A stretch of DNA of 64,000 bases from Takakia lepidozioides (taxonomy: Eukaryota > Plantae > Bryophyta). A program made the translations under genes and the position numbers. The stretch's first letter is position 1. The number at the start of each line of letters is the position of its first letter. The stretch spans positions 77,686,001 to 77,750,000 of the forward strand of contig CM060732.1 of assembly GCA_030704615.1 (NCBI GenBank), written 5' to 3'. Of this stretch, positions 15,836-53,480 are shown in pieces. A model generated the notes under the pieces. It saw only the letters and a program-made list of their open reading frames with translations. It did no database searches and was not told where the DNA came from.

Positions 15836-17949
15836 AACCCTTAAGTTCCCAAGCAACCTGAATCGGGTCACTTTGAATTTGCGGTTCGACCTAATTTTTG
15901 CAGATCTAATCTGATGGGGCCCACTCCTGAAGCTTTAATGACAAGTCTTCGAGTATGATGCAAAAAACAAAATTAAAAAAAAAAAAAGCTGCGACTTACA
16001 AAAAATATCTTAGATCTTTAATTTACGTTTTGGGGCCTGAAAAGGGCTGTTGACCGCTGACATGGCAGGTAAACAAGCCCAAAACAGATTGCACTCCAAA
16101 GGCCATTTTTGGCAGAAAGTTAGCAAATCTGGAAAAAACACTTCACCTTGTGGTGTGTGAGCATTACATACACACATCCGCCGTTAGCTTTTAAAAAATT
16201 TGTAGAAAAAAAAATACTTCATTTGGAGGCACATTTTCTATTGTCAATTTTGAGATTTCAACCCCCATGTAATTGGCAGATGTGTGCCATCCTGGCACCA
16301 TCTCCTCGTCCGTCTCACCATGCCAACGAACTCTTCTATCATCAAGCTCACTTGTGCATGGATTGTGACTCAATCCATCCGCATCCCGCTTGACTATTCC
16401 GACTCGATGCACCACCTGGAAGTCGTATTTTTGAAGCATAAGTGCCCACCGTGCAAGCTTCCCTGTAAGCTTGTTTGACTCCATCAACCACTTCAATGGT
16501 TGATGATCCATGATAAGGGTGAAGAGATTGTCATAGAGATATCATCTGAAATGTGTCACTGCCCATACTGCAGCTAGACACTCTCCTTCATATGAGTTAT
16601 ACTTCGCCTCAGCATCATTGTTCAAGCGGCTAGTATATGCCACTACGAACTCTCTTCCCTCATCATCCACTTGTGTGAGCACTGCTCCAATCCCCAACAT
16701 ACTCCAATCCGTGTATAGCTGGAAAGGCCGCCCCCGAATAGGCACAGAAGTCAATCGAGCCTTGAATTCCTCAAATACTTTCTTTTGCTCTTCCTCGCAC
16801 TGCCACTCCTGAGTCACCTTGGTCAACTTGGTAAAAGCCTTCGCAATACTACTAAATCCTTTGACAAACCGACGATATTAGTTTGTCAACCCCATGAAAG
16901 CACGAACTTTGCTTACATCTATGGGGCGTAGAATGCGTGCAATAGCCTCCACCTTTGTTGTTGAACACCCAATCCTCCAAGGTATATGATGTAGCCCAGA
17001 TACTCAATCTGATCGTGGAAGAACTTGCACTTTCTAGGGTGCAGTTTCAATCCATGCGCCCTCAAGCGCTTAAACACCACCTGAAGGTGTCTCTCATGTT
17101 CCTCAACTGTGGCACTAAAGATGATGATGTCATCAATGTAGCATTGCACGAAGTCTAGCCCTGCAAGAATCCTACCCATGACCCTCTGAAACTCTGCAGG
17201 AGCATTCTTCAACCCAAATGGTAGGAAGCGCCATTGGTACAAACAATCCTTCCCATGCTGATCAATCCCCCAGAATGTCGTTTTTTGCTTGTCAGCCTCT
17301 TTGATTGGCGACTGGTGATAACCCGATCGTAAGTCCAATGTGCTAAACACCTTCGCATGCCCAATGACATCAAAGATTTCATCTAGAGTTGGCATGACAT
17401 ATCTATCGGACTTAGTCTGACGGTTCACAGGACGAGAGTCCCCACACATCCTTCTTTCTATCCAATTGCCATAGATATCATTCTTAACTGGCATCACCGT
17501 TGTCGAGGCATACTCCCCGTCTGACAAATCCAGCTTCGAACAACTTCATAGTCCGTGACTGAATCAATGACCTCTCCATGTCACTATACATGTAGGGCCT
17601 TCGAAAAATTGGCGTATCACTTGTCAAATCAATATGAATCTTTTGGCCCTTCAAACTCCCCAAATCCTTCAAACCGAAGGCAAAGCAATTTCTATAAGCC
17701 TTTAGAAATCGCCGGATCCTCCATCTCTCTCCTCTAGTGACTGTAGGTCCAACATCTGGTTCCCAATTGTCGTCAGTGACTGAAACCTTGGGTACACCAG
17801 GGAGGTGGGAGACGCATCCTTTGAGATAGCAACCTCTTGGGCCTTGTCTTGTCCGCCTACCCTGACTGTGGCGTAGCCTCCACTTGCTCCGCCATAGCCA
17901 CCTTGAGAACATCCTCCGCAAAAGAAACATCATCGACCTCTTCAAGAGC

Positions 17950-18600
17950 CTTGGCCACCTTGGCCTTAGGCCGTACGTGGTTGTCCCAATCGATTGACCA
18001 CCGCCAAAGGTGGACGGTCATCATATCGCACCCTCTGTGGTTGCCTCCCTTGGTCCAAAATGCCCTCAACCGTGAGGTTGGGTGGCCGTTGAATGGAATC
18101 ATAGGCTCTCTTGAACAACTCTAGTGGTGCAAGATTGGTCCACCACAACCTAGGCCTATGTGCCGTGAACCCACTGCAGCTGCATCCAATAATACAGCTG
18201 GTCCAATCTAAGACCGCACCTGATGCACACTAGCCATAACCCTGGCCCGAGAATCCCCCATGAGAGGAACATTCTCCAGGATGTAAGTTAGAGGTTGCAC
18301 TTGCCTCACCTGCAAGTCACGCAACACTCGCAACATCTCCCAAAACAAATGCGACCTCGGCCCAAATCATCTGCCCCCAGCAAAGTAATGTCTGCTGGCA
18401 AGGCCTTTTGGTACCCTTGAATTGCTGAGAAATGCAGCAACTCAGGATACTGGTGTATGAGCAAAGCAACGTGGCGCATAGAAATGCGCCAAGCTCTCTC
18501 ATCATTCTCCTTATACAAGTATTTTTGTACTTTAATCCCAGTTTGCAATACTCCTACAAGCCCAGTGTTCATGCCTCCAAACAGGTCTAGCAAACAAATC
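17950..18600 (-). pseudogene. Degenerate C5-cytosine DNA methyltransferase domain of copy 1
   Basis: LLDLFGGMNTG (motif I), YILENVPL (VI), AHRPRLWWTNL (VIII); motif IV (PC) and motif X are absent relative to copy 2. Confidence 0.82.
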
Positions 18601-19032
18601 CTTGAATCAGGTGGTTGTCAGGTAATGGGCACTGTGTCCAAATGAACTAACTGAGGAGGTCCAGGTGATGTCACTGAACTCCCCTCACTCATCAATGGAA
18701 AGGCCTCCCGCCATGCTTGGTGCACATTCTCGCCTACTACTCGCTGCAAATTCCCAACCGTACCCCACAGTGGAATATGCACAGGCACATGAGGAAGCAA
18801 CTCGGCCTTGTATGCCAGTTGTTTGTCCTCATCAAATGGTGACCTATCATCTGCATGGCTATTGCCCTCCAAGAGCTCACCATCCCAAGCCACCACCCCT
18901 GAGAATGCAGCCAATTGGGCATCATGTTCTTATGATCCACCACTACATTCCCGTACTGGGAGCAGTGCACGTCGGCCATCTCTTGACTGCCACTCCGGCT
19001 TGTAGGATGTCGTTTCCTCCCAAAAGTCCAAA

Positions 19033-20234
19033 TACTACAGGAAAAGGGAGGGTTTTTCGACGCCGGGCCACGCCGCGGCGTCGTAAAGAAATTTGAATTT
19101 CAAAAACTTGTTGACCATTGACTCCGACGTTGACCATTGACTCCGGTTCTGTCTAATGGCGATATGTTCATTGTTCTACATATATCATGCAATGCATACT
19201 TGAACCTAAGACCTCCACGTTATAACATTTCTAAGACACTACAAACTAACCAACACACCTTTTTCGGGCAAGGGGGAAGAACTAAATTTGCGAAGTTCGG
19301 GCGTCGTAAAAAAAACGTCGCAAATTTGCGACCAACGGGGGTCGCAAATAGGCGAAACCGCAATTTGCGATGTCGTCACAATTTGCAACGCCCGAGCGTC
19401 GGAAATATTATATATTTAATTTTTTAATTTTTTTAATTTAAAAAAACATATTCTGCAATGCAGAATTAGCACCGTCCGGGGGTCGCAAAGTTCGACACCC
19501 GGACGTCACAATTTAAGGGGGTACATTTGAATTTAGGCGGGTACATCTATGTATCACAAAAACAATCTATATATATATATATATATATAAAGATTTCCTA
19601 CAAGTTCTTTCGAAGAGGGTCTCTCTTGTGACGTCAGGGAGTTGCAACCTCCACAGCCTTAGCGCCGCCCCAGCGTCGTCGCCGTTATTGCACGCACCCC
19701 CTACCGCCAGGCACCCCAAGTGACGTCCTTGTGATGACCTAAGCTGACCACAACACCATTGCGATCTCCTGTGGCGACGCCGTTACGACCCCCTAGCGTC
19801 GCAACGTTGGGCGTCCCAGCGCGGGGCGCCCCCAGCGACACTTTTGTGAAGTTGAGGCCGCAAAGCCCAAAAAAAAAAAAAAAAAAAAACTCCCACTGTG
19901 GTGATTCTGTTGCGACGCCTTGGCGTCGCAGAGGCGCTGGGACGCCCTTAGTGACGCTTTTGCGACGCTGAGACGTCGTAACGTCAAAAAAACATTAAAA
20001 ATAAATAAAAATAAAAAATTAGATTTCCGACGCCGAGGCGTCGCAAGAAAAAAAATCCGTTGCAGCGAGGGCCCTCTTTCCCCCTTCATACCACCTTACG
20101 ACGGCTGGGCGTCGTAATGCTGTCGCAGTGGGCGATGCAAAAAAGCGCCGCAGGCTTGGCATCGCAAGCTTAGTGCCGCACAGGGCGTAGGGACACGTTT
20201 GGCGTCGCAAACCCCCCCCCTATTTGCTGTAGTG
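19033..20234. mobile_element. Non-autonomous CACTA (En/Spm) element, ~1.2 kb, inserted in the protease region of copy 1
   Basis: TIRs (T)ACTACAG..AAAAGGG / ..TTTGCTGTAGTG; 3-bp TSD AAA; subterminal GCGACG/CGTCGC repeats; host reading frame resumes on both sides (YPMGF|LDFWEE). Confidence 0.88.
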
Positions 20235-20554
20235 AAAAAAAATCCCATGGGGTACAACACAGCCCCACCAACAAGCACATCATAAGACATCGCATCCGTA
20301 ACAATGGCTTTAGCTCTTATGACTGAGCCGTCCGTAGGATGATCCGGCTGCAATCGAATTAAGAGCTCATGGCGTGTAATCCCTCGCGTCTTCTCTGAAC
20401 CACCCAAATATGTTTGAATTTGGAAATGGGAAGGCTCCAAATCCGCCTTTGTAAGGCCCAAGCCTGCAATTGCTACTCTCCACAACATCAATGGCTGTGC
20501 TCCCGAGTCCAACAAGACCCGCAGTGGCCTATACCTCCTCTCGGTTGCAGCAGC

Positions 20555-21854
20555 CACCACTACGTTTGGGGGGGTTAGCGATGCCCCAGCGACCTTCAAC
20601 CGCCGCGATTAGTGACGAAAATACTCTACGGCGCCCGGGGCGCGATGGGGGCATTTAATTATGACGTCGGGAAGTCGCAGAGACGTTGCAGCGACGTCGC
20701 TCCCGGAACGTCGTTGGGAAATCCGGGACCCCCCGGCCACGGCGCCGGCGCGACTTGCGATGTCCAGGCATCGCAAAAAAAACAAAAAATAAAAATAAAA
20801 AATAAAAAAAATCTGCGACATCGCATTAGGGACGTCCGGGGGTCGTAAATGCGACCCCCAGACGTCACAGTAGGGGGGTACATTTGAATTTAGGTGGGAA
20901 AAAAATTTGAATTTGAATTTGAATTTTAAATTTCAAAAACTAGTTGACCATTGTCTCGGCGTTGACCATGGACTCCGGTTTTATCCAATGGCATTCGTGC
21001 ATTGTTCTACATATATTAGGCAATGCATATTTGAACCTAGGACCTCCACATTATAACATTTCTAAGACTGCATACTAAACCAACAAATCTACAATACATC
21101 TATGTATCACAAAAGCAGTCCAAGTATATATATATATATATATATCAAGAGTTAGATCCTAGTGACTACCACTATCTTAATCTTATCATTGTGTTGCAGA
21201 TTATGCGTACTCTACAGGAGCTCTCACAGCTGGAACTTGCACCGAGACTTGTCCCCAGAGTCTTCAAGAACAAATATATATCAATGGCCTAAGTTTTGCA
21301 AAGCTGCATTGCAACTTATTGTTAGACAATGGTTATAGTCTGAGGATGCCAAGCCCATTATGCTCTACAATCTATTCCCAGAATCAATTTTCCGCGACGG
21401 CCCCAGGACGCCGGGGAATCGCAGCGCCGCAGCCCAGCGACGGCCGGGCGCTCCTGCGATGGCGGGGAATCGCAAAAAAAAAAAAAAAAAAAAAAACGTT
21501 TTTTATTTTATTTTTATTTTTCGGGCTTTGCGATTCCCCGCCGTCGCAAAAACGTCGCTGGGCTGCGGCGCTGCGACGCCTCGTTGCAATTCCCCGGCAT
21601 CACAAATCCCGGGGGCATCGTAGCAAATTGTTGCGACGTCAGGGCGTCGCAACCCTCCCAATACGTTGGCGGGGGAATGGGGGTTGGGTCCCTTTCCGGC
21701 AACGGCATGGCATCGCAAGATGCCACAACGTCGTCCGAACGCCGGCATTGCGACGCCCCAACGTTGCAAGTCCCGAGCTGGGCGCCTGTGCGACGCTGCA
21801 GTCTCGGCGCGTCCGGGGTCCTGGCGTCGCTAACCCCCCCTAAACGTAGTAGTG
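20555..21854. mobile_element. Non-autonomous CACTA element, ~1.3 kb, related to the 19033-20234 element
   Basis: TIRs CAC(C)ACTACGTTTGGGGGGGTTAGCG / CGCTAACCCCCCCTAAACGTAGTAGTG; 3-bp TSD AGC; shares an internal block (~20920-21085 vs ~19090-19255). Confidence 0.9.
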
Positions 21855-24124
21855 AGCAGAGTCCAATATATGCAATGGCCCTGCAAGTGCGGCTTCACAC
21901 ATGAAGCCCATATCAATCTGGTCTTCCCTAGGCATATGAGGTTGTGTAGGTGGGGCTTGAACCTCAGGCCTTGGAGTTGGCGCAACATGAGTAGTGGCCA
22001 TGGCAGTAAGACGTTGCTCTAGCTGGGCAAGTCTATCCACCATGTCTTGGTCATGACCTTGACCCTGACCCTGTGCTCCTTGGTTTTGGTTACGACCTCC
22101 ACCTCCTCTACCTCTCTGAACTACATTGTCTCGTCCTCGGCCACCATTGTTCCCTTGGAACTGGCCTGGCCATAGCTCCGGATGCAAGTCATAACAATGG
22201 ACCTCCTCATGCCTATACTCTCCATAATGCCCACAGTGTAGTTGTGCAGGCTGTGCCCGTGCCGACCCTTTGCCTCTCTCCGGGCAATAATTCTTGACAT
22301 GGGGTCTTCTACAATCCCAACATGACACACTCGTCTGTTGCTGGCCTGAGAATGAAGGGAGAGACCTCTGAATCTAAGATCCTCTATGGCCTTCCCTAGG
22401 CTTTGTCTGAGCCTTTGTTGTCTTGAGCACATTCGGGGGTTGGTTGTTGTTGGCTAGGAACTCCACTTCGTTGTGTCTCCTTGCCAAATCGCACCATAAC
22501 CACCCGCTCCTCCACCATATTGAATTCTATCCGCTCTGCCAGCAAAAATACATTTGCTAAGGTGGGTTGGGCTACTTGTAGGAGAGTTGCATCCCGCACC
22601 CTTCTCATCAGCTCTTTGTCCAGGATCCCATACCAGAACTGGACTACCTAAGCTTCTGTAACCCCTTGGATTACGTTTATCAAGCGCCTCATGCAAGTGT
22701 AAGCCTCCCTCAAACTTTCAGTATGCCTTCGTTGGAACTCTTGCAAGCTCTGCAACTTCTCTGTCTTTATCCCTTGGTAGTTTCTCCTCAACTCCTCGAA
22801 GAACTCCACAACTGGGTTAAAGGCAGGCTCGGGTGTTGTGCTACAGCAGGAGCTTGAGTGGATTTCCCAGCTCCTGTACCACTTGTCCCACTACTAGTGC
22901 TTGTTGTTGGGGATGTTGGTGTAGCTGCTGTCGCCGCTGCCCTTGTGCCTCTAGTGATAGAGACATAGTTAGGTGACCAATACTCTCGTCACTCCTCAAT
23001 CTCCACCGCATGTCCCCGCCTAAATTCATGGTAATCATCCATGGGCGGCCCCTCAAGGTGCTGGAATAGCCCCTTCCACGCCATAAAGGGCATAAAACAA
23101 TTGTGGATTGCACATTTGTTGCAAATCACACCAACTGTCAAACTCATGTATGAAGTCATCAAGCTCGATGGTGCCCACAGCTCCAGAGTACCTACGTGGC
23201 CCCTTGGTCACTCCATACATCTCCTCCATCGTGTCCCACAACAATGACTTGCACCCTCGGCGAGAATCCTCCTGACTCCGAGTCTGAACCTTCCTCCGAA
23301 GACATTGAAGGTGAAGGTGGCCTAAACCACACACCTCGTCTTGTGTACCTACTAGTATCGCTGGTGCTCGTACCGGCACTTCCTTCAGCAACTAGTGGCA
23401 CCTCCGTGATGAAAACTCACAACCCAACCGGTTGTCAACCTATTTCTAATCCCCATTTTCCACAAAATAACCGGGTAGAGAACCTGTTGCGGCTAGTGGT
23501 TCAAGCAGGAATAATAGGTTTTTAACGTAGACCTGAACTTGCACGTGCATCCACCGCAAGAACTCATATGGTCTGCTGGTCATCAACCCAGCCTCACCAT
23601 AAGATAAACAATGATGGTCTGACTGGTCATCACCCTAGCCTCACCACCGACAACACGCTCTAGGATTGGCCGGTGATCAAATCCGGACCAACCTCCTATG
23701 AAAACAAGCGCCCACACAAAACTAACATGGCGCACAGTCAAACATGCAGGTGTGGAGGGGATCCAAACACAAGAAAATCAAGACAGCAACTCCCCTACAC
23801 CAAAAATACTCCACAGTGTCGCTCCCGCAATGACACCCCAGCCCAAACCCGGACTGACTCTTGTCTCCACCTACGGAAAGGTTTTGGCCTACAGAGAGGG
23901 TAAAAGACTACAAGGAAGAGAGACTAAAGCAACTCATAATCCCAGCATGCTCTCATCCCACTACCCTATTTCCACACTCTTTTGCTGGTCTCTCAAATAA
24001 CTCTCTAGGAGCCCTCAAGATGTCTCTCAAACAATCTCACTAAGGCTCCCAATCCTTGCACAATGGGACTCCAAAACAGCACACCAAGGCCCCAAGAGCC
24101 TGCCAAAACTTGGCCCTCGAGGAC

Positions 24125-24635: not shown

Positions 24636-26574
24636 TACACTACTAGGGTTTGTAATGAAGAGCTAGAATGCAAGTCCTTGACTTCTATGCTTCTACTCAA
24701 GCAAAAATATGGTCTCTAGGTGGTCAAAAGAGGCATCTTCTTGCTTTCTTCCACCCCAATGTGCAACCAAGAGTGGTCCAACTCAACTTGCAATCATTGG
24801 CCACCAAATCAATCCCCCTTCTAGTCCTTGGGATTTGATTGCAAACTACCATATCTCCATTATCGAACAATCATGCATTTGTCTCCTTATCACTTGCCAA
24901 TTGTTCCAAATCAATACAAATTATCTTAATGTGTAGGAGCAATGTTTGTCACTTACAATATGCTCCCAAGCAATCCACCTTGGATCCCACTCTCACGCCA
25001 TATGCCTCCTTTGGGGTCTTGCACTAATCCATCATCCATGTGCTCCCCTTGGTCATTGAATGCATGTTCCATGACCTCTTGGCCTATGTGTTGCTCTCCT
25101 TCATTGTAACATGAATCAACACCTCTCCACTTCACACACAAATGGATCTCAAGGCCTTCACCTCTTGCTAGTTCAAGAGCTCCCCTTCTCAAACTTGAAC
25201 TTACAAACTCAAGAGAGCATGCTCCACACATGCACAATTTGCTTGCAGGTCAACTATCCACCACAAAGCTCACACTACCAAGAGCATGAATAGCCAAGTA
25301 TTGCCTCCCCCTCTTGTCACATTACATAGTGAGGGTGAAGCTATGCATACATTGAGTGATGATCTCCCTTCAAGGATTTCCCACCATATATTCTCTAAGC
25401 CCTTCCAATGGCGCCCTAAGCTTGGCTCCACACCACCATGATTGGAAGATTTCTTCACATGCTCCCTTTCAAAACCTCTTGAGCTTCTTAGTGCTCTCCA
25501 AGTGCTTGCCCTTGTTGTCTTCAAGCCCAAACATATGTAGCTCCTTGGCTTCTCTTCCACAACATCCACACTTTGAACTTGCTTAACCCTAGCTTGATAG
25601 TGAAATGAGCACTAACAAGCCTTTAGTGACTCTCCACAAGCCATGACACACACCATTGACTCCATACAAAGGATTCTCAAACCCTAAATCCATGCTTCCA
25701 CACACACAAGACTTCATCCTTGCAATCCTTGCAAAATCTTGTGACTCAAGAGCTTTCTTCTCAAGCTCTCCAACTCCTTGGTGCATGCAGCACCCGAGCA
25801 CCCTTCCTTGCAACCCCTTGCATTAAGCCTTGTGATACAAAAGCTAAATTCTCCTAACTCTCAACCTCTTTAACATACAAGTGCAAAACTAATCCTTACA
25901 CTCCACAGTATTCACAAGCATAAGGTGATCTTCTTGTAGTGATAAGAGATGAGAAATGAGCGAAGTGGAAGACAATGAAAGCTCTCAAAGCAATCGCTCT
26001 AAGAACAAGCCCTAGTCCTTCCAAGTGAAATCCACTCTATCACATAAACTAAGTCAAGCCAAGGGCACCTTTGCTAAGGGAATCCACCCTACAAAGCCCT
26101 CAACACACTCCCTCTCAATACCTAGAGCTATGGAAGTGAGAGATGCTCATGGAGGCTCAACTACAAGAAGATGAGCCCTCCTCAACACTCACAAGGGGAA
26201 AACCCCTTTCCCATGTCCCAAGTGAGGATTGATACCTCACTTGGCATATGAGACCAAATGAAGTCCCAACACACAAAATACAAATATAAATATCCAAAAT
26301 GTCCTAGTTAACTAGAAGTAGGTAATTCTAGTTAACCATGACTAAAACCATGACATATATGAAAGTATCTGCTCTTATGAAAGGGGGAACAGCTTACGTT
26401 GAAGTGATGTATATTAAAGAAGAAAACCATGCATGAGTGGAAGTCTTCGCAAATTTATTTGCAAGAATGAATGGTGACTATTGTAAATTGATCAACTTCT
26501 ATGAAAGGGGGCAAGGATCCTTTATATAACATGTGAGCTTTTTTGTGTCCAAAGTTTATGCAGAGAAAGACACT

Positions 26575-28236
26575 TATAAAGGGCCCAGGTTTGGAAGGGG
26601 GTGTGGGGATTGGAGAGTGGTCCAGGAATTTTCAATTAACTAGGGCCCACAGGGAACAGAAAAAACCTGTAAGGCTAAGAAGAGGGCCCGGAAAACTGCA
26701 CCCCATGCCAGGGACGTTAATACATGGATAGTGCGGCAGTGTGTCGTGCACCTAAGCATCGTGCCACAACATACATCGCTGTCCACCACACATTCTAAGC
26801 ATACAATCCTAGAAAGCTATGCCACAATAGATAAGAGATGAGAAATGAGCGAAGTGGAAGACAATGAAAGCTCTCAAACATGAAGCAATCACATTAAGAA
26901 CAAGCCCTAGTCCTTCCAAGTGAAATCCACTCTATCACATAAACTAAGTCAAGCCAAGGGCACCCTTGCTAAGGGAATCCACCCTACAAAGCCCTCAACA
27001 CACTCCCTCTCAATACCTAGAGCTATGGAGGTGAGAGAGGCTCGGCTCAACTACAAGAAGATGAGCCCTCCTCAACACTTACAAGGGGAAAACCCATTTC
27101 CCATGTCCCAAGTGAGGCTTAATACCTCACTTGGCATATGAAACCAAATGAAGTCCCAACACACAAAATACAAATATAAATATCCAAAATGTCCTAGTTA
27201 ACTAGAATTAGGTATTTCTAGTTAACCATGACTAAAACCATGACAAGTGGGATCAGCAACCGTACGCTTGGAGGAATGTACGTGGTGGAGGCAACCTTCT
27301 AGAAGGTCCCACCGCTCAGGGCTCGGTAGGCTTCTAGAAGGTCCCACCTATGAGGGTATATAAAAAGAGTCGGGGCTCTCTTCCCTGCGTCTTACTATTT
27401 GCTCACTTACTACTTACCAGTACCTAGGGGCTCTGCACAGACAGGGCCCCCCAAAAAAACGCAAACCATACATATTAAACTAATAGATGTAGTGGGTGTG
27501 ATGAATAAGGGCCGGGTTTGAAATGGGGTGTGGGGATTAGAGAGTGGTCCAGGAATTAACTGGGGCCCATAGAGAACGGGAAAAGTCTGTATTAAGGCTA
27601 AGAAGAGGGCTCGGAGAGGGCCCCAAAAATTGCACACCCCATGTCAAGGACATTAATACATGGATGGTGCGGCAGTGGGATCCAACAACCATAGGCTCTT
27701 GGAGAAGTGTACGTGGTGGAGACAACCTTCTAGAAGGGTACCGCCGCTGAGGCCTCGGCAGGCTTCTAGAAGGTCCCACCGCCCTGTGAGGGTATATAAA
27801 GAGAGTCGGGGACTCTCTTCCCCTCTCACTTACTACTTACTCACTTACTAGTTACTAGTACCTAGGGGGCTCTGCACACGCAGGGCCCCAAAAAAAAAAA
27901 AAAAAAACCATGACATAATAAATTAATAGAAGTAGAGCAAAGATGAATAAGGGGTCCAAATTCATCACACCCACTACATCTATTAATTTAATATGTCATG
28001 GTTTGCGTTTTTATTTGGGGCCCTGCCCGTGCAAAGCCCCCTGTAAGTAGTAAGTGAGCAAATAGTAAGACGCAGGGAAGAGAGCCCCGGCTTGCTTTAT
28101 ATACCCTCATAGGGCGATGGGACTTCTACAAGCCCGCCAAGCCCTGAGCGGTGGGACCCTTCTAGAAGGTTGCCACTGCCACGTACACTTCTCCAAGCCT
28201 ACGGCTCCTGGTCCCACTGCCGCACCATCCATGTAT
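26575..28236. repeat. ~450-bp repeat unit in two tandem direct copies (first interrupted by the mini-element) plus an inverted partial copy (27961-28236)
   Basis: AAGGGCC..GGGGGTGTGGGGATT..GTGGTCCAGGAATT at ~26580 and ~27507; GGGTATATAAA core; reverse-complement copy begins TTCATCACACCCACTACATC at 27961. Confidence 0.8.
26740..27245 (-). mobile_element. 506-bp non-autonomous mini-derivative of the DNMT retroelement family
   Basis: 26830-27245 is nearly identical to 25941-26355 (5' end of copy 1); 26740-26829 resembles the 3' terminus of copy 2 and ends ACACA; flanked by a 2-bp duplication AG, with an empty site GCGGC-AG-TGGGATC at ~27669-27682. Confidence 0.85.
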
Positions 28237-30096: not shown

Positions 30097-31429
30097 TGTC
30101 AAGTTAGTTTACCACTAGTGTGAAACTAGCTAGGAAATAGCTAGCTTTTACATATTGACATTTGGGATTGGCCCAAGTGTCAATCCAGGGGTCAAGGCAG
30201 ATTTAGGCCCTGGAGTGGTTATCTTCACGGCAAGCGCGGGAGGCTCATCTTTCTCGAGTTGAGCCTCACCGCGCCTAGCTATGGCGCCGTAGTGTGGATT
30301 CCCCATGGCGTGGGGTGGACTTGGCTTGACTTGTATTTGAGTGATGAGGTTATATATGCATGAGTTTATGCTTCAGCTTTGTGAGCTCTCATGAGCTTGT
30401 GCTTGTATTCTTCTTCTTTATCACTCGAGAAAGATGAGCTCGTATCTATGAGTACCAGATACGAGTTAGTTGTAGCACTTGTGGTTTTTGCTTGAGAATG
30501 AGAGAAACCAGGTTGTTATGCAAAGAGCACCGTGGAGCTCTTGGTTGTTAGAAGCGGAGGCGATGTGGGTTACGAGGTGGTAAACCTTGGCATTCGATCT
30601 TCAGCTTCAGAGATGAAAATCATGGTAGATCGTGGTAGATCATGGTAGATCACGGTAATTGTTCCAATCCCAGATTGCGATCTTTTTTTTCTCCCGCCCA
30701 TACTGCAGGTAATTCCAGAGCACCTTGATGGTTTCAGATTGTGTACATGCATGAGCAAGCACGATTGGGAAGAGGACCAGTCAAGAGCAGGTTATAGTGG
30801 CTTTGGTGGCAAAGCTGAGAACTGGACTTGGGAATGCGAGCTTTCATTGTGTGAAGGATGGCAAGACCAAGCGAAAGGGCTGATTTGGCTTGGGGCAAAT
30901 CAGTGCACTTTGTGGAGTATGTTGAGAGTGGGTTTCAATCTCGAGCTTCAGCATTGAGAGGGCTCTTGTCATGGCAAGAGCAGGGCTGGAACAGGAGCTA
31001 AGAGGTGCGGCAAGGCCATGGAATGTGCACCTAGGGTTTCAGAGCTTGGAAGAAGAGCTCTTGCACCACAAAAGGAGTGTCTTGTGGCTGGAAATGTAAG
31101 CCTTAGGGTTTCAGGAATAGGCTATAAGACAGATGCTATGGCCAAAGGAAACGCTTGAATGAGTGCTCACAAGGGCTAGAAACCAGCAAGGATTGGTTGT
31201 TTGCCATTGACTTTAGTGGCGTGTTTGGGGAGTCTAAGTGAGAAAGAAAGCTTGGTTTGTGGCAACCATCTTCCTCATGGCTTAGGGCTACTATTGGTGG
31301 TGTGTGGGAGCCGAAAGAGCAAGAATACCTTGCTGATTTCTTCACAGCCGCCATAGCTTGGTGCAAAGAAGCCTAGAGTCCAAGAGACACAAACCCTAGC
31401 TTGGCGTGGCTAAACCCCTTGGAAAAATG

Positions 31430-31890
31430 GCTGTGATGGGCTGTGACAGGCTGTGCCCTGTGGCCTGTGGGGCTATGACGGGCTGTGAGGGGCTGTGACA
31501 GGCTATGGCGAGCTCTGACAGGCTGTGGCGGGTTGTGACAGGCTGTGGCGAGCTGTGACGGGCTGTGAGGGGTTGTGACAGGCTGTGCCCTGTGGCTTGT
31601 GGGGCTGTGATAGGCTAAGCCCAGTGGCCTGTGGGGTTGTGACGGGCTGTGAGGGGCTGTGACAGGCTGTGGCGAGCTGTGATGGGCTGTGAGGGGCTGT
31701 GACAGGCTGTGGCGAGCTGTGACGGGCTATGAGGGGCTGTGACAGGCTGTGGCGGGCTGTGACAGGCTAAGCCCAGTGGCCTGTGGGGCTGTGACGGGTT
31801 TGTGACAGGCTGTGGCGAGCTGTGACGGGCTGTGAGGGGCTGTGACAGGCTGTGCCCTGTGGCCTGTGTGGGGCTGTGACGGCTGTGATC
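31430..31890. repeat. 10-bp tandem array (GGCTGTGACA/GGCTGTGAGG/GGCTGTGGCG) in the leader of copy 2
   Basis: About 45 degenerate 10-bp units with higher-order recurrence. Confidence 0.92.
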
Positions 31891-32626
31891 AGTGAGCTGT
31901 GTGGGCCTGTGCTGGTCTGTGGTGGCCCGTGTTGACCTGTGGACGGCCTGTGCTGATTCGTGGAGGCACTGGTGGACTGCCTAAGGACTGACATGTGGTC
32001 TTGAAGGCCGAATTTTGAAGCTCGTGGAGGGCGGTTTGAGGAGTATCTTCATGATATTCCCATGGTCATGCAAGTAAGGGAAGAGAGGAGATGAAGAGTG
32101 TTGGGATGAGGGCATGTTGGGGTTAGGCATTGCTTTAGCTTCTCTTCCTCGTAGTTTCCACCCTCTCATTAGGCCAAGACCTTTCCGTAGGTGGAGACAA
32201 GAGTCAGTCCGGGTTTTGGGCTAGGGTGTCCTTGCAGGAGCAACACCGTGGAGTTGTTTTTGGTGTGGGGGAGTTGTCGTTCTGATTTCTTGTGTTTGGA
32301 TCCCCTCCATACCTGCATGCTTGACTGTGCGCCATGCTAGTTTTGTGTGGCGCTTGTTTTTATAGGTGATTGGTCCGGATTTGATCACCACCCAGTCCTA
32401 GAGCATGCTTTCGATGGTGAGGCTGGGGTGATGACCAGCCAGACCATCATTGTTTCTCCTGTGGTGAGGTTGGAGGTGATGACCAGCTGACCATAGGAGT
32501 GCTTGCGGTGGATGCAGGTACAAGTATAGGCTATGTTAGGAACTTAATATTCCAAACAATAAGCCACAACAGGTTCTCTACCCGGTTACCTTGTGGAGAG
32601 GGGTTTAGGGACATGTTCATGACCGG

Positions 32627-34695
32627 TTGAGTGTCAACACGGAGGTGCCACTAGTTACTGGGGACAGTGCCGGTTCGAGCACTAGCGATACTAGTGGGTA
32701 CACGAGACGAGGTGTGCGGTTTAGGCCACCTTCACCTCCTGTGTCTTCTACGGAAGGTTCTGATATTGTGAATCAGGAGGACTCATACCGGCGGTGCAAG
32801 TTGTTTCTTTGCCATTGTTGTGGGACACAATGGAGGAGATGTATGGAGCTACCAAGGGGCCACGAAGGTACTCTGGGGCGGTGGGCACCATCGAGTTGGA
32901 TGATTTTATCCAAGAGTTTGATAGTTGGTGTGATTTGCAGCAAATGCGCAATCCACAACTATTTACGCCTTTCATGGCATGGAAGGGGCTGTTTCAGCAC
33001 CTTGAGGGGCCGCCTATGGATGATTACCATGAGCTCAGGCGGGGGCATGAGGTTGAGATCGAGGAGTGGAGGATGTACTGGTTACCCGACTATGTCTCCA
33101 TTACTAGGGGCACTAGAGCCACGAGGGCAGTGGCTACACCTGCCGCTGCACCGGCAGCTTCAGCAAGTAGCAGTGGGACTAGTGGTACAGTAGCTATGAC
33201 GTCCACCCAAGCTACTATCGCACCAGCACTAGTACCCGTGCTTGCCTTCAACCCTGTTGTGGAGTTCTTCGAAGAGTTGAGAGGGAACTACCAAGGGGTG
33301 AGGACAGAGAAGTTGCGGAGCTTGCAAGAGTTCCAACAAAAGCCGACCGAGAGCTTGAGGGAGGCTTTTACTCGCATGAGGCGCTTAATAAATGTAACCC
33401 AAGGGGTTACGGAAGCTCAGGCAGTCTAATTCTGGTATGGGATATTGGACAAGGAGCTGAGGAGAAGGGTGCGGGATGCAACTCTCCTACAAGTGACCCA
33501 ACCCACCTTAACAAATGTGTTTTTGCTGGCAGAGCGGATAGAGCTCAACATGGTGGAGGAACGAGTGATCATGGTGGGATTTGCTAAGGAGACACCACGG
33601 GGTAGTGGTGCTCCTAGCCAACCACTACCTCAACGTGCTCAAGGCAACAAGGGGGCTCAGGTGAAGCTCAGGGAACGGCAGAGAGGACCTCAGATGCATG
33701 GGTCTCTCCCTTCATTTGCTGGCCAACAATGGGCGGATGTGGTGTGCTGGACATGTGGAGGACCCCATGTCAAGAAGGATTGCCCAGAGGGAGGCAAAGA
33801 GCCGGCACATGCATAGCCCGCACAGTTGCAGTGTGGGCATTGTGGCAAGCACGGGCATGGAGAGGCCCAGTATTATGGTTTGCATCCTGAGTTGCGCCCA
33901 GGCCAGTTCCAATGGAACAATGGTGGCCGGGGGCGAGGTGGAGCAGCCCATAGAGGACGAGGTGGCCAGGCACGAGGTGCAGGCCAAGGGCAAGCTCAAC
34001 ATGGCCAAGGACGCGGAGGTTAGGGTGTTGACCAAGGCATGGCCAACCGGCTTCAGCAGCTAGAGCAGAGGCTCGCTGCCATGGGTACAACTCAGGTGGT
34101 ACCGGCTCCAAGGCCGGATGGTCCACCTCCTGCTCCTGGAGGAGATATGGGAGGCATGGGATTCATGTGAAGAGTAGCACTACCACTAGTGCAGGTGGAG
34201 TCTGCTGCAACCGTGACTCGAGGAGCAGCACGAGTTCCTGAGCCACGAGGTGCAGAGGTGGAGTTGGATCCACAGCGTGGGGAGGCAAGCCATCAGGCTA
34301 GGCTTCCTCAGTCATTCACATTGGCGGAGACAGTGTCGACGCCATCCATGGCACCTAGTTCTCGCCCGATTGTTACCGAGGCGGAGGTTACTATGCCATT
34401 GGGGAGAGCTACACGGGTAGCACCACTACCTAGTGTTGCCAAGGCTACGGCAGCTAGTGTGCTGCTAGGAGCGGCCACATTTGTGTGCCAGGCTCCATTG
34501 TTCTCGGCTACCATGATTGCGACGCCGGGGGTAAGACCAACTGAGGTGTTCAGACTGGCAGCTACACTATGTGAGAGTGGGGAGGTTACTTCATCTTCTG
34601 CGGAGATAGTGGGAGGTGTAGTGCCGGAGGGATCCTCGGATTTGAGGATCAAGACTGCCATGGTGGCGCCATGGCAAGCTGCAGCTGCCAGCTAG
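32627..34695 (+). pseudogene. gag of copy 2 with two CCHC zinc knuckles and an RG-rich region
   Basis: LDDFIQEFDSWCDLQQM...FQQKPTESLREAFTRMRRL; CWTCGGPHVKKDC; CGHCGKHGHGEAQY; in-frame stops at 33427, 33814, 34021, 34168. Confidence 0.8.
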
Positions 34696-34769
34696 GCCAG
34701 CCATTGAGCGCGCCATGGTGACACCTGGAGTTGTCATGTTAGACAACCAGGATGACATTTTCTGTTTGA

Positions 34770-35315
34770 GTGGACCTGGCAAGCAAGAGGTACCGGCCAC
34801 TACGGGTCTTGTTGGACTCGGGAGCTCAGCCATTGATGTTGGGCAGAGCTGCTATTGCAGGCTTGGGCCTCACGGAGGCGGATATGGAGCCTTGTCCTTT
34901 CCAGATACAGACGTCTCTGGGAGGATCGGAGCAGGCTCGGGGCATGACACGGCGTGAGTTGGCTATCAGACTACGGCCGGATCACCCTACAGATGGCTCA
35001 GTGATGCAAGCCAAGGCCATTGTGACAGACGCGGTCTCATACGATGTCCTGGTTAGTGGGGCAGTGTTGTACCCCATGGGCTTCACCCTGGATTTTTGGG
35101 AGGAGTCAGCTTCCTATAGGCCTGCATGGCAGTCAGGGGAGGGCCAACATGTGCAGCTCCCTGTGACGTTCATAGGAGGAGTTGCGGTTGCCCAGCGAGG
35201 CAAGATGCCGACACTAACAGCATTCACAGCGGCAGTGAGTTGGCCTAGAGAGTTGCTTGAGGGCAACACTCATTCAGAGGATGTACAACCTCCGGGAGAG
35301 CTGGATGACATGTAA
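34770..35315 (+). pseudogene. Aspartic protease of copy 2
   Basis: RVLLDSGAQPLML ... YDVLVSG (D-S-G active site and DxLxG flap motif). Confidence 0.85.
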
Positions 35316-35528
35316 GGTATGGCGGAGTTGCCTATCATGGTTGCTCAGACTCCATTGTGGGGCACGAGCAAGGATTTGCAGCGGGAGGCTGATTGACGGG
35401 TGCAACAAGCCTGGGTGGAGGCTTTTGTACCGTCAGGAGAGGAGGAGAGTCCGGGGATTGCACCAGGACCACCTCAGTTGTCTCCATTTGACACCACACT
35501 TATTGTGTGGCAGTATCCGGATGAAGGC

Positions 35529-36480
35529 ATTTGTCTTCTGGACTTGTTTGGCGGGATCAGTACCAGATTGGCTGCTGTGTTATAGGCAGGTGTACGAGTT
35601 CGGCGTTACCTGTATGTGGAGAGGGATGAGACTGCACGACGTGTTTTACTTCGCCATGTTGCTCAGTTGGTGCAGCGGTACCCTGAGTTGTTGTCGGTGT
35701 CTGCAATTCATGGATATCAGTAGGCCTTGCCAACAGACATTTCGTTGCTGGGGGCACAGGATTTGGAGCGGGTTGGCTCCATTAATCTGGTAGTGGCAGG
35801 TTGGCCCTGCCAAGGGCATTCATCAGCCGGACATGGCAATGGATTGCGAGACTTGAGGTCGGGTCTGTTTTGGGAGATGATGCGGGTTTTGCGCCACTTG
35901 CAGCTTCATCAAGCTGTATCTCCAACATACATCTTGGAGAATGTGCCACTGATGGGCGATTCTCGGGCCAGGGTGATGGCCAGTGTGCATCAAGTCCGGT
36001 TGTGGCTTGGGTCAGCAGTGTTGCTAGATGCAGCTACAGTGGAGTCACGGGCTCATCGTCCACGGCTATGGTGGACTAACTTGATGCCACCCGCACTACT
36101 CAAGCGTGCATTTGATGGGGTGCAGCGGCCAGCACATCTCACAGTGGATATCATTCTAGACACAGGGAGGCAGTCTCAGCGTGTGAGACATGATGACCGT
36201 TCGCCTTTGGAAGTGGTCAACAAGGTGGGTCAACCACGAGCAGCATTACCTACATTGCTCAGCTTCCCAGGATCGCATGCTTTCCGGGATAGTGGACCTG
36301 GCCTTCTATGGGATGCTCAGTTGCAGCAGTTAGTGGAGCCTAATGCTGACGAGCATGAGCAGGCAATGGGTTATACCACTGGTACCACGGCGGTGTCGTC
36401 TCTTTCTGAGGCATCACGTCGTCAAGTGTTGGGGCAAGCAATGGATCTCAATTACTTGACCTGGATTATCAGCTTTGCTA
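35529..36480 (+). pseudogene. C5-cytosine DNA methyltransferase domain (DNMT3-like) embedded in Pol of copy 2
   Basis: Motif I LDLFGGIST (~35538), motif II YVERD, motif III DI, motif IV GWPCQG (Cys 35808-35810), RSGLFWEMMRVL, motif VI ENV (35937), motif VIII AHRPRLWWTNL (~36051), motif X RRQVLGQAMD (~36417); same frame as PR and RT; two in-frame TAG stops (35583, 35721). Confidence 0.92.
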
Positions 36481-36935
36481 TGGCTGAGCAACGCAGAATG
36501 CGGAGTACACTTCCCTCGATGGTCTCTTTGCCTACCGAGATGGTATAGGCAGTGAGTGGGGGCAAGCATGTGAGGACCACGGGGTGCAGGCATCCATGAC
36601 ACACGTGGGAGGTGCTTGAGGTTCAGAGGGAGTTGGCAGCCAAGGTGGCGATGAAAGATGAGGTTGGGGATTTTTCTCGGGTGGAGGAAGTCCTTGAGGA
36701 TGAGATAATGGGGCAGGATGAGGCCTTGTCACTGACTGAGCAGGTAGGGAGTACTGCTCAAGAGGTTGCAACATAGCAACCACTGGATGCGTCCTCTACC
36801 TCTAAGTCCACTGGACTTAAGGTTGCAGTTACGGAGGACAATTGGGAGCCTAACATTGGACCCATTGTCACCGGAGGAGAGAGACGACGTATACGGCGGT
36901 TCCTGAGGGCTTACAGGAATTGCTTTGCCTTCAGT

Positions 36936-38350
36936 TTGAAGGACTTGGGAGCACTGAAGGGTCAAGAGATCCGTATTGAGTTGGCCACTGACACGCCAAT
37001 CTTTCGGAGACCCTATAGATACAGTGACATGGAGAGGTCTTTGATTCAGATGAGGACTCAAGATCTCTGGGAGGCAGGTTTGGTGGAGCTCTCTGGTGGA
37101 GAGTATGCTTCAGCCACAGTGATGCCAGCCAAGAAGGATGTCTATGGCAATTGGACGGAGAGAGGTATGTGCGGTGATTACCGGCCTGTAAATCGTCAGA
37201 CCAAGTCCGATAAGTATGCCATGCCAACACCAGAGGAGATCTTTGATGCTATCGGGCATGCTAAGGTCTTTAGCACTTTAGATTTACGATTCGGATATCA
37301 CCAGTTGCCAATCAAGGAGGCGGACCAGCAGAAGACGACATTATGGGGGATCAATGAGCACGGCAAAGATTGCCTATATCAATGGCGGTTCTTACCATTT
37401 GGGCTTAAGAATGCTCCTGCAGAGTTTCAGAGAGTCATGGATAGGATTTTAGCAGGGGTGGACTTTGCTCGGTGCTACATAGATGACATCATCATCTTTA
37501 GTGTTACGATGGAGGAGCATGAGAGACACCTTCAGGTGGTATTGGAGCGCTTGAGAGCGCACGGATTGAAGTTGCATCCGGGGAAGTGCAAGTTTTTCCA
37601 CAACCAGATTGAGTATCTGGGTCACATGATATATCCTGGAGGATTGGGGGTACAGCAGACTAAGGTAGAGGCCATTGCACAAATTCCACGCCCCACGGAT
37701 GTGAGCCGAGTTCGAGCTTTCATGGGGTTGGCAAACTATTATAGACAGTTTGTCAAGGGATTTAGTACCATTGCAAAGGCTCTAACCAAGCTGACCAAGG
37801 TGGACCAGGAGTGGCAGTGGGAAGATGAGCAGGAACGAGCTTTTCAAGAGCTCAAGGCGAGGTTGACCTGGGCGCCTATCCTGAGACGACCTATCAGGGG
37901 GCGTCCCTTTCAGCTGCATACGGATTGGAGCATGCTGGGGCTTGGAGCGGTGCTCACACAGGTGGATGATGAGGGAAGAGAGTTCGTAGTGGCTTATGCT
38001 AGCCGCTCGAACAACGCTGCAGAGGCTAAGTACAGCTCATATGAGGGAGAGTGCTTAGCTGCAGTGTGGGCCGTAACACACTTCAGGTGCTATCTATACG
38101 GCAATCTTTTCACCCTTGTCACGGATCACCAGCCACTCAAGTGGTTGATGGAGTCAGACAAGCTTACGGGGAAGCTTGCACGGTGGGCACTCATACTCCA
38201 AGAATATGACTTTCAGGTTGTGCATCGACCGGGTTTGGTCAATCGGGATGCGGATGGATTGAGTCGTAATCCATGCATGAGCCAGCATGATGACACTGGA
38301 GCTCGGTGGCATGGTGAGACGGACAAGGAGATGGTGCCGGGATGGCACGC
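36936..38350 (+). CDS. Reverse transcriptase and RNase H of copy 2 (open part of Pol)
   Basis: MCGDYRPVN, FSTLDLRFGYHQ, PFGLKNAPAEFQR, YIDDIIIFS, LHTDWS, YEGECLAAVWAV, TDHQPLKWL, DADGLSR. Confidence 0.95.
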
Positions 38351-38639
38351 ATCTGCATTTTTGTGTATCTTGGCATCGGGAGGTCAGGTTGGACCTACAA
38401 CAGGGATGACTGTAGACAGAGTGTCTGGGACCCTGAGGCTAGTGATGAGCCAGGTGGTGCCAGAGATATACATGAGGATTCGGCTGTGTTGGACTACCTC
38501 CGCACGGGAGACACGGCAGCCACTGTGACTGCCAGGGAGAGGGATCGGATCCTGCAATGAGCCAAGAGGTTCAAGTGGGAGGGGATACACCCACTTCGAG
38601 TGTGGGATGATGGTTGAGTGAGGATTGTGCCTCACCCCA

Positions 38640-39720
38640 CACAACGTGCACAGTTAGTGCGGCATGCCCATGATGAGTTGGGGCATTTTGGAGTGCGACG
38701 CACTCACAGTTTACTGCAGGGGTAGTATTGGTGGCGTGGTATGCATACAGAGATGCAACAGTTCGTGGCTAGGTGCATGGTGTGTGACAGGGTGCGTGCT
38801 TCATTCAACGCCCCTACACCACAGTTGCATCCTTTACCAACCATGGGATTGGGCTACAGGTGGAGTCTTGACTTCGTAGGACCGTTGCCACTAACTATGC
38901 GCCACCACATATATGTGTTGGTGATGGTGGAGCACTTCTCCAAGTGGATTGAGTTGGTTCCATTGCCTGATAAGGCTAGTGAGAGGGCTGCGTATTGGAT
39001 CGTGGGCTTAGCCGATTTGGTGCTCCAGCTGAGGTACTCACGGACCAAGGGAGAGAGTTCTTGGGGGAGTTTCAGGCTTTGTGTGATAAAGCCTTGATAG
39101 ACCACCGCACCACTTCTCGGGATCATCCTGAGGCCGATGGCTTAGCAGAGAGAGTTGTTCAGACGGTGAAGAGGGGTTTGCGCAAGTATGGCTTACAGAA
39201 GGGACACCTAGGAGATTGGGATCTTCAGGTTCCTTGGTTAGCCATGGGCTACAGGTTCAGCAAACAAGCATCACTTGCCTCCTTCTCACCATATTTCCTT
39301 CTCTTTGGCCGAGAGCCGGATTTGCCTGCAGCCATTCATAGGGACACTGCTCAAGTCCTTAACCTTGACGATCCGGACGTATGGGTACGTGCATGTGATC
39401 AGCGTGCAGAGTTGTTCAAGAAAGTCATGCCCATGGCTTTTGAGAACCTTGCCATTGCACAACACCGTGATACGTTGAGGTATGCCACTATACGTGGTGG
39501 AGGATATCGTCCTGGGGTTCGGAGGTTTAGCCCTGGTGACTATGTTTATTTGCAGCAGACTGTTCCTACGACTCTGGATGTTACTGCAGGGCGTGTTATT
39601 CTGAGGGTTCGAGAGGTGTTGCCCTTAGGGGTCCTGATCTTGGAGGGTCGGGATGACATGACTTGGAAGGACTATGTGCGTAATTGTGCGCTATGTCACC
39701 TTCCCAATGTCGATGGCAGA
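38640..39720 (+). pseudogene. DDE integrase of copy 2 (frameshifted)
   Basis: HAHDELGHFG...CMVCDR (HHCC), WSLDFVGP, VLTDQGREF, DGLAERVVQTVK, SPYFLLFGREP. Confidence 0.92.
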
Positions 39721-39759
39721 GTTGACCCAAACTTGGCAGTGGTACCTGCAGGTTTGAGG

Positions 39760-39893
39760 TGCATGCTCTGTGGGTCTACCAAAGGGGCAGCCACCATGCT
39801 AGTGTGTGATCGATGCTCAAGGGGTTGGCATATGAGATGCTTGACACCACCTCTTGAGAAAGTTCCTGACGGAGATTGGTTGTGTCCACCTGC
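39760..39893 (+). other. PHD finger (C4HC3) at the integrase C-terminus
   Basis: CMLC...MLVCDRCSRGWHMRCLTPPLEKVPDGDWLCP; the last Cys codon (TGC 39891-39893) is in a shifted frame. Confidence 0.9.
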
Positions 39894-40153
39894 TTGGGAT
39901 AGTGGCAGTGGACATGACTGGATAGGCAGCTAACAAGACATGGGAGGCCAAACTCATAGGAGTCAATACATGAGATCCCAAGCTCAAGTTCACAGGTTGC
40001 AAGACGGCGACTAACGATGGGGCAACTCTTGCACCTGGCCTCTTGATCTATCGAGTTTGAGTGTAGTAGGGATAGTGGTGGAGGACTTAGTGAGGCTATG
40101 GTCACTATCACATCTTGTGGCTACCTGGACTTAGAGGGACCTAAGCACCAACT

Positions 40154-40351
40154 AGGGGGGCGATTGTGTGGACTAGTGACTGCCATAGTGGGCAGCATAG
40201 TGGCAGCCTAGTGACTGACTAGTTGTAGCCTAGTGGTTGGACTAGTGGCTGGACCAGTGGTGGACTAGTGATATACTAGTGTGTGGCGTGCACATGTGTT
40301 GTGTGGTTTTGGACAACGATGTAATTGTGTAGCGATATGTATGCCCACACA
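40154..40351 (+). other. PPT-like tract (AGGGGGG, 40154-40160) followed by a 187-bp 3'-terminal segment TGTGTGG...CCACACA
   Basis: Purine tract a few bases before TG; 7-bp inverted ends; CTAGTG-rich interior; no matching copy seen at the 5' end. Confidence 0.7.
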
Positions 40352-52094: not shown

Positions 52095-52306
52095 CGTATC
52101 TTACAAAAGCATAGCCAAATCATTGGCTCTGCGCATTCAACCCCTGCTCCCATCTCTTATTCCTACTGGTCAGGCAGGCTTCATTAAGGGCAGATACATC
52201 TTGGACAATGTCCTTTTGGCCCAGGAAGCACCTATCTACGCAAAGAACACTTAACCAAGCGTTAGCTCTATGGCTTCTTGACTTTGAGAAAGCATTTGAT
52301 ACAATG
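52095..52306 (+). mobile_element. LINE reverse-transcriptase fragment
   Basis: AKSLALRIQPLL..GQAGFIKGRYILDNVLLAQEA..LLDFEKAFD. Confidence 0.8.
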
Positions 52307-53480
52307 TCCAGGAATGTCGTGTGTTGCATCATGCATCATGCATTGATAGAGTGTCCAGAGCTGTTATGAAGTGCAAGGGCAGCAAAATGAGGAGCAACTG
52401 TACTTCCTGCTCACTAATGTGACATTGTATTGCGATGTTTGAGAGTGAATGTGACGCAGTTGTTGTTGAATCTATTTACATCTCACACTCGCTGTGAGCC
52501 CACAGTCGCCCCCCTGCAATTTTTCTGTTGGAAGAGCCCATGAAGACAGACCTGGTTATTAGGTGCAGCATCGCAACGGAACAAAAGGAACACCTTCTCC
52601 AGATTTTATGCCAAGCTGTGCAGAGCAGGACCTCTAGGATGGAAGAAGGGAAATGAAATGAAATGAAATGAGATGGTACTTTAAGAGAGAGAAGAGTGTC
52701 AAAACAAAACCCAACTCCTGCGTGGGAAAATCCCACTTGTGTACAAAATGAGGTGGTTACTAACATAAGGGTGCAGCCAGGCCGATAGCAACAAACCAGA
52801 AGGAGAATGAGTTATCTTTTGAGAAAGCCATATATGGCAACCATGGAGTATTTTTAGCTTTTCCGAGAAAAGATGTCCGTGCATCAAACGCTTCACAAAA
52901 ACAGTCACTCTACCTGTACAGGTAAGTACTATATAAACTCAAAGTTTACTTTACAACTGAGTAGCAGGAGTCTAGCAGGAGTCGGATTGTAGTTGCGTAC
53001 ATTGATTGCCTCTGGACAAATTACCACCAGTATGTGAGCTCGAGGGGTAGGGGATGTCTTGACTTCGTTGGCTCACATACAGGTGGTAATTCTCCAGACG
53101 CAACAGATTGCGGGATGATATAGAAGTTGAGTAATTAATAACATGGGTAGGGTGCAGTTGCCAATGAAGATCATAGAGCAGCCTACTAGCAGGAAGGCTA
53201 CCTCGAAGAAGCAATATTTCTCCTCTCTTGAATCAGCTCGGCCCCAGTTACGTACTCCGGGTGGATTTTCAACGGTTTTGAGACATGTGCTGCACGTCGC
53301 CCGCAACCGGCATACCAAGAGTGATCCTAAACGAGAGTAATTTGCTCCTCGTCTCATGCGATCTTGTCACGGTCCTCAGGGATTAAATTTGCATACCTAA
53401 TGATCATGTCCTCAATTGAACCGTTGCAGTATTTGAAAAACTTTGCCCGATGGTCCCATAATGAGAACCGCTACAACGAC
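52307..53480 (-). repeat. Inverted copy of 2712-3866
   Basis: Reverse-complement identity with small indels. Confidence 0.92.

Follow-up and report, generated by a model that had tools for sequence, protein, structure and literature searches.

A DNMT3-type methyltransferase and a conserved in-frame stop codon in a Ty3/Gypsy retrotransposon family of land plants

Cytosine methyltransferase (MTase) domains of the DNMT3 type have been described in KnitGypsy-Dnmt3, a Ty3/Gypsy retrotransposon of the alga Klebsormidium nitens, and in SymbioDIRS-Dnmt3, a tyrosine-recombinase element of Symbiodinium (de Mendoza et al. 2018, PMC5890265). The KnitGypsy-Dnmt3 domain is intronless and non-permuted, lies in the same ORF as reverse transcriptase (RT) and RNase H, and is under purifying selection by a criterion of Ka/Ks under 0.2; the repeats of the element follow a DIRS-like A-coding-B-A-B order. 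The domain gave no methylation activity in yeast, a result that its authors call inconclusive, and the SymbioDIRS-Dnmt3 enzyme carried out de novo CG methylation in the same host (PMC5890265). EpiLTRs of Cymbomonas and Euglena are LTR elements that pair a cytosine MTase, sister to DNMT4 and accompanied by DAM, with a chromodomain as chromatin reader; the preprint describing them also mentions "streptophytes (Gypsy-DNMT3)" (bioRxiv 10.64898/2026.05.21.726589). Tcn1/Tf1-sushi chromoviruses of mosses are predicted to be self-primed and carry a reader at the integrase C-terminus (PMC6317226). True DNMT3 genes exist in non-flowering plants, with introns and a C-terminal DUF3444 (PMC6453930), and according to a 2019 opinion paper, land plants such as tracheophytes lack DNA methylases encoded by transposons (PMC6338049).

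The window (the whole 64,000-nt stretch of DNA that was analysed) contains two copies of an element which is a land-plant variant of the KnitGypsy-Dnmt3 kind; it would work alike and differs in having its MTase outside the RT ORF. The two, compared by description and not by sequence, share the Ty3/Gypsy type, the intronless non-permuted domain and purifying selection (dN/dS of 0.18 for the window pair), and the A-coding-B-A-B layout recurs in some, but not most, of the loci related to the window copies. Unlike SymbioDIRS-Dnmt3, the present element has a DDE integrase and its relatives have 4-bp target duplications, so that a DIRS/Ngaro tyrosine-recombinase element was ruled out. The pairing of MTase and reader is as in the EpiLTRs, with a PHD finger here in place of the chromodomain; the same holds against the Tcn1 chromoviruses, from which the element further differs in having an MTase, and split repeats rather than two full LTRs. 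Neither self-priming nor a PHD finger (0 occurrences of PHD) is mentioned in the main text of PMC5890265. The initial annotation had named MTase retrotransposons in dinoflagellates and Klebsormidium, as PMC5890265 confirms, and knew of no land-plant case; none was found in the literature searched, nor were the land-plant range, PHD finger, conserved stop or self-priming of such elements found described there, most subscription papers lying outside that search. The supplement of PMC12344493 held no matching mention, and the related literature covered also included PMC10952607, bioRxiv 2021.02.12.428880, PMC9033089 and PMC5784723.

Copy 1 shows the Gypsy order of protease, RT, RNase H and integrase with a DDE core (Table 1), and its frame 34770-38525, which spans protease, MTase, RT and RNase H, has no frameshift and seven internal stops. 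The gag product is 48% identical to the N-terminus of Marchantia Mp_4g09160. The nearest structures of the PHD finger were CHD4, PHF12, DPF3, KDM5B, ATXR5 and PHF21A, most of which read the unmodified H3 tail. The element starts TGTCA, as related loci do, and ends ...CACA, and positions 40119-40168 match the pre-B region of 11 related loci at 83-90%. By analogy, repeat A would be the promoter/R/U5 part of an LTR; no 3' copy of it was found within the window and no clear TATA box precedes the putative self-primer. The earlier account of this locus had noted neither the PHD finger nor the signature of self-priming nor the split repeats at the ends. The Gypsy insertion split a minus-strand LINE encoding endonuclease and RT (42892-40350 and 30096 downward), the reading frame of which resumes on both sides of copy 1 with an imperfect target duplication (CAGC vs CA-C).

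Table 1. Positions in the window of the element copies and of the features of copy 1.
Feature	Position	Strand	Remarks
Whole Ty3/Gypsy element, copy 1, decayed	30097..40349 (10.25 kb)	+	layout A-coding-B; sits in LINE ORF
5' repeat A, 327 nt	30097..30423	+	ends ...TATCA; agrees in length and position with the 337-nt A repeat of related loci
Putative self-primer, predicted transcript 5' end	30243..30258	+	16/16 nt complementary to 30424-30439
Primer-binding position, directly 3' of repeat A	30424..30439	+	complementary to the element's own 5' region
10-nt tandem array, 5' leader	31398..31921	+	
gag, CCHC knuckles	32830..34608	+	Retrotrans_gag E 5e-5; 4 stops and frameshifts before protease (decay)
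Aspartic protease, LLDSGA	34785..35144	+	weak Pfam match, E 0.068; relatives match Asp_protease_2
DNMT3-type C5 MTase domain, motifs I-X	35520..36494	+	PF00145, structure matches, translation
In-frame stop TAG-CAA-CCA closing the Gag-protease-MTase frame	36774..36782	+	fits UAG-CAR-YYA
Predicted stem 3' of stop, weak	36787..36890	+	z -2.95 in window; -0.55 to -2.40 in 5 loci
RT + RNase H	36930..38219	+	same frame as MTase, uninterrupted; RVT_1 E 4e-31, RT_RNaseH E 9e-36
Integrase: H2C2 zinc finger, rve core, C-terminal part	38465..39759	+	frameshifted, with stops
PHD finger at integrase C-terminus	39760..39888	+	PF00628 E 9e-11; last cysteine missing in copy 1
Polypurine tract, then 3' repeat B (about 40165-40349)	40154..40349	+	end resembles B end of related loci
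Copy 2	16276..23960	-	73-80% nt identity to copy 1; same domain order, two insertions

Six MTase motifs (LDLFGG, YVERD, GWPCQG, ENV, AHRPRLWWTNL and RRQVLGQAM) were read in one frame, without introns and in the canonical order I-IV-VI-VIII-X, as the initial annotation had them, and the translated frame matched PF00145, as that annotation had proposed to check (E 2.2e-10, 40.9 bits at a cut-off of 22). DNMT3A was the top solved structure (E 5e-8 by single sequence, 2e-24 by profile), and DNMT3A/B/C outranked DRM2 (4e-13, profile) and DNMT2/bacterial enzymes. For a naturally open relative of the domain (L003), an AlphaFold model of pLDDT 81 again gave DNMT3A as the top Foldseek match (E 8e-15). 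By its closest sequence and fold matches the MTase is of the DNMT3 family, in agreement with the earlier reading of DNMT3-like wording; DRM membership was ruled out by the motif order, which is not circularly permuted. The introns and DUF3444 of host plant DNMT3 genes (PMC6453930) are both missing from the element MTase, domain searches of copy 1 and its relatives giving no DUF3444 match. Two stops private to copy 1 lie inside the domain (35583 and 35721). Among land-plant loci the key residues are kept (F in 52/54, catalytic C in 49/51, motif VI E in 48/50), and an 11-sequence alignment spanning the green lineage shows no variation at the catalytic Cys, Glu and Arg positions.

Relatives were collected by two protein searches (32 and 118 matches), by a search of representative sequences, the source of the Closterium proteins (the best 150 of 546 clusters passing E 1e-30), and by a metagenome scan, which yielded 56 loci, 54 of the element's family and 2 bacterial-type MTases. 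Close relatives of ~65-73% identity occur in Marchantia, Calypogeia and Sphagnum (including S. fallax and S. troendelagicum), with 73% over the MTase in Calypogeia fissa and up to 71% over the full domain in many Marchantia gene models; more distant ones occur in Closterium and in the chlorophytes Hariotina, Tetradesmus, Chromochloris, Haematococcus, Monoraphidium and Cymbomonas. Two layouts were seen. In the streptophyte type the MTase follows the protease, a position common to liverwort, Sphagnum and Closterium elements. The other is RT-RH-MTase-INT-PHD (37 + 30 more proteins, from chlorophytes where named), with motif IV reading EC in 93 and PC in 44 of 158 rows; elements of this second layout, e.g. 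P0070, P0098, P0144, P0028 and P0031, were not found described in the literature searched, and in one Hariotina protein a Tudor-like domain is present as well. Gag-PR-MTase ORFs of metagenome assemblies (P0018-P0022, P0082-P0094, P0176) form a sister clade, and these ORFs too end after the MTase. The Marchantia genes Mp_4g09160, Mp_8g17980, Mp_6g11220, Mp_2g26090 and Mp_8g15430, annotated as hypothetical, are pieces of the retrotransposon. Viral contigs gave no relative by single-sequence search and only weak phage-type MTase matches of partial length by profile search (E at least 6e-9), and thus no viral donor was seen.

Quick trees with SH-aLRT support, containing no host DNMT3 and no Klebsormidium row, were congruent for MTase and RT: the window copies and those of Marchantia, Calypogeia and Sphagnum formed one clade (SH-aLRT 100 in both), separate from Closterium-type and chlorophyte-type elements. 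In the MTase tree, which was midpoint-rooted and included two long bacterial rows, the three metagenome loci that were placed grouped with Sphagnum. The window copies branched outside the Marchantia-Sphagnum group, so paralogous families and a different host lineage are both possible.

Between copy 1 and copy 2, dN/dS was 0.18 for the MTase (211 codons, a value that rests on this one pair), 0.16 for protease, 0.11 for RT and 0.09 for RNase H, with 0.47 in the protease-MTase linker. Comparison of copy 1 with 49 loci gave a median MTase pN of 0.22 and pS of 0.70, near saturation. Among young decayed loci the median dN/dS was 0.66 for MTase and 0.43 for RT, and common MTase variants comprised 33 synonymous and 61 non-synonymous changes, a level at which constraint is not clear. 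Because its relatives span bryophytes, Closterium and chlorophytes, the sequences identify the MTase as an ancient selected module and not a recent capture. The view that the domain is a family trait, with the proposed check for a dN/dS near 1, therefore held up, given the shared position in relatives and the purifying selection in the window pair.

The initial annotation had described one shared frame broken only by point stops. Literally this is true, and six of the seven internal stops are private to copy 1, each being shared by 0-5 of 35-54 loci; at two of them, 36546 and 36597, host contigs (run X1) differ in 96% and 99% of depth. As a description of decay it does not extend to the stop at 36774, where, across 534 host contigs (run X1), no difference reaching 2% is listed at any of the 9 nt. 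Run X8 (organism B) gave no contig over this region. The stop site was reached by 33 of the 38 loci that have the MTase end, or 31 distinct loci after two duplicates were dropped; 30 of the 31 have TAG or TAA at the equivalent position (TAA instead of TAG in 10), and 28 then read CAACCC. Elsewhere in the frame, no position has a stop in >30% of loci, and the linker flanking the stop is highly diverged between the related loci and the window family. Copy 2 is without six bases at this spot. RT-free proteins numbered 29 of Gag-PR-MTase and 15 of PR-MTase form, and, truncated ones aside, most of them terminate 49-181 aa past the MTase; Closterium and some other relatives have no stop between MTase and RT. 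Judged by these sequences, the stop at 36774 is a feature of the family and not decay. It separates MTase from RT and so assigns the MTase to the Gag-protease product, and the earlier placement of the MTase in the same Pol ORF as RT was given up. Hypermutation was dismissed as the origin of the shared stop, since CAG/CGA hot spots are affected in at most 30% of loci and there the sense codon is still the majority. Reinitiation at a Met after the stop was likewise rejected, this Met being found in related loci and absent from the window family.

The type I readthrough motif is UAG-CAR-YYA (PMC3542737), and type I contexts give about 6-32% readthrough in plant reporters (PMC2754532). The TAG-CAA-CCA of the window family fits this motif, and the CAA-CCC context of the related moss family agrees at 5/6 positions. 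RT is thus likely to be made by readthrough, as far as the context predicts. The arrangement shares with TMV replicase a UAG-CAR-YYA context upstream of a polymerase (PMC3542737, PMC2754532); in contrast to TMV-type readthrough, the predicted signal here lies in a retrotransposon between MTase and RT. In the predicted stem beyond the stop, two-sided changes were found at 2/20 pairs.

The reading considered probable is that the Gag-PR-DNMT3 frame ends at the stop, that RT-INT-PHD is made by readthrough and that the MTase methylates the element's own cDNA in the particle. The anatomy was read directly; from it we infer enzyme activity, readthrough and cDNA methylation. Readthrough at UAG-CAA-CCA would give a fixed excess of Gag-protease-MTase over RT/integrase and hence many MTase molecules per particle. 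The protease would free the MTase to methylate double-stranded cDNA there, probably at CG by analogy to the Symbiodinium element enzymes, and new copies would arrive pre-marked, resembling host DNA. The PHD finger may then steer integrase to H3K4-unmethylated chromatin. The ADD domain directs animal DNMT3 to such chromatin likewise. Reverse transcription would be self-primed as in Tf1/Tcn1.

The main rival, though an unlikely one, is that the stop is spliced out to express RT-integrase, perhaps together with some or all of the MTase, much as Ogre elements splice (PMC6317226). Both families have, directly behind the stop, a pyrimidine tract ending in AG that could serve as a splice acceptor, and the NCBI models that join MTase to RT in Marchantia and Sphagnum copies, which are predictions, skip the stop segment. 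The single contig of run X12 that crosses the stop is unspliced, but this run is only guessed to be RNA and the contig speaks for neither side. Against splicing, each of the two families keeps MTase and RT in one frame across the stop despite different linker lengths, CAA-CC is conserved, and the pyrimidine stretch has other roles to fill, as it codes for a run of Ser and can pair with a downstream purine run. A mainly nuclear role of the MTase, directed at the insertion site, other copies or host chromatin instead of particle cDNA and serving as self-restraint or a reshaping of local methylation, is judged rather unlikely. Gag-level production would be expected to supply a large enzyme excess, the element encodes a chromatin reader besides, and self-limitation is among the options raised in PMC5890265; the stop and predicted protease cuts, however, would keep MTase and PHD finger from being one protein, and the MTase of chlorophyte relatives, lying between RNase H and integrase, fits action on a cDNA-integrase complex.

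It is doubtful that the domain is kept for nucleic-acid binding or as a decoy with little or no catalysis. The inconclusive yeast result for KnitGypsy-Dnmt3 (PMC5890265) and the EC form of motif IV that prevails in relatives with the MTase after RNase H could be taken in its favour, but the SAM-binding and catalytic residues retained by land-plant loci and the invariant Cys, Glu and Arg of the green-lineage alignment speak for an enzyme. That a retrocopy of a host DNMT3 was captured recently and without selection is largely excluded and would be most improbable: a donor is conceivable, as non-flowering plants have true DNMT3 genes (PMC6453930) that a tree without them does not place, yet the shared position in liverwort, Sphagnum and Closterium elements, the congruent MTase and RT trees, the dN/dS of the window pair and the lack of a DUF3444 match all oppose it.

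Related loci start TGTCA and end (C)GACA, with 4-bp target duplications that are exact in 5/7 and differ by one transition in 2/7, and a polypurine tract precedes B. Of the 13 related loci whose B end is complete, 5, from 4 distinct insertions, have the A-coding-B-A-B layout; the other 8, and copy 1, end at the first B. Loci L022 and L040 have downstream flanks that are 95% alike and yet differ in a B versus a B-A-B ending, a sign that either B copies recombined or the assembly collapsed. Self-pairing 3' of A (at least 9/11 nt at the expected place) was seen in 14/18 related loci, in a sequence differing from that of the window, with the complement lying in A some 30 nt beyond a TATA box. Such pairing is a sequence signature of self-priming.

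If the LTR is B+A, opening a 2-LTR circle at the palindrome GACA-GC-TGTC would yield this layout as a circular permutation. At A|B two LTRs seem joined end to end, and the B|A joint resembles an integrase attachment site; integration by this route would not proceed from linear cDNA ends and would explain A-coding-B-A-B. A more extended proposal, offered tentatively and with less than even confidence, is an overlooked "writer plus reader" clade, spread across the green lineage and surviving in land plants, whose bryophyte members unite a leaky stop, capsid-level DNMT3, cDNA pre-methylation, PHD targeting, self-priming and 2-LTR-circle integration at GACA-GC-TGTC.

The family is abundant in the host of the window and present in Marchantia, Calypogeia and Sphagnum, which contrasts with the statement in PMC6338049 cited above. 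As methylation mutants exist in the genetic model Marchantia, the role of a retrotransposon DNMT3, open since 2018, becomes directly testable. The conserved stop would add a dosage mechanism for the enzyme. With their ends split in this way the elements would escape LTR finders, and the same ends hint at an unusual integration route. Many Marchantia PF00145 "hypothetical proteins" represent these elements, a point to consider when host methyltransferases are counted.

Copy 2 has its MTase at 18599-17969 (minus strand) between protease and RT, where the initial annotation had located it, though frameshifted and with the PC catalytic loop deleted; two related non-coding insertions lie inside this copy (19088-20240 and 20560-21960). 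The family is highly repetitive in the host, a 1.8-kb query drawing 19,606 contigs (run X1), a figure that is not a copy number. The commonest listed differences of host contigs from copy 1 were A>G and T>C, the pattern expected if deamination of methylated C drove the decay of copy 1. A third Gypsy element, a distant one (61188-62681, minus strand; ~30-35% identity in RT, RNase H and integrase), gave no MTase match in its part inside the window. A cluster of direct and inverted repeats at 25941-28218, with units of ~430-900 nt, may consist of solo LTRs or MITEs. The last four exons of a pheophorbide a oxygenase (PAO) gene lie at 437-1968 (plus strand) and are 76-85% identical to Sphagnum, 68-79% to liverworts and 58-76% to angiosperms among 9 matches, a Ceratodon-containing cluster being also near. 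These 9 included no fern, lycophyte or hornwort, and a tree of the gene did not settle its placement; the host is taken to be a non-seed land plant, likely a moss. Tandem, partly decayed gene copies at about 5600-14200 (minus strand) are, by their motifs, presumably aldo-keto reductase-like, and a 1.2-kb inverted duplicate (2709-3873 and 52300-53484, 95.5%) contains what we take to be a MADS-box-like fragment.
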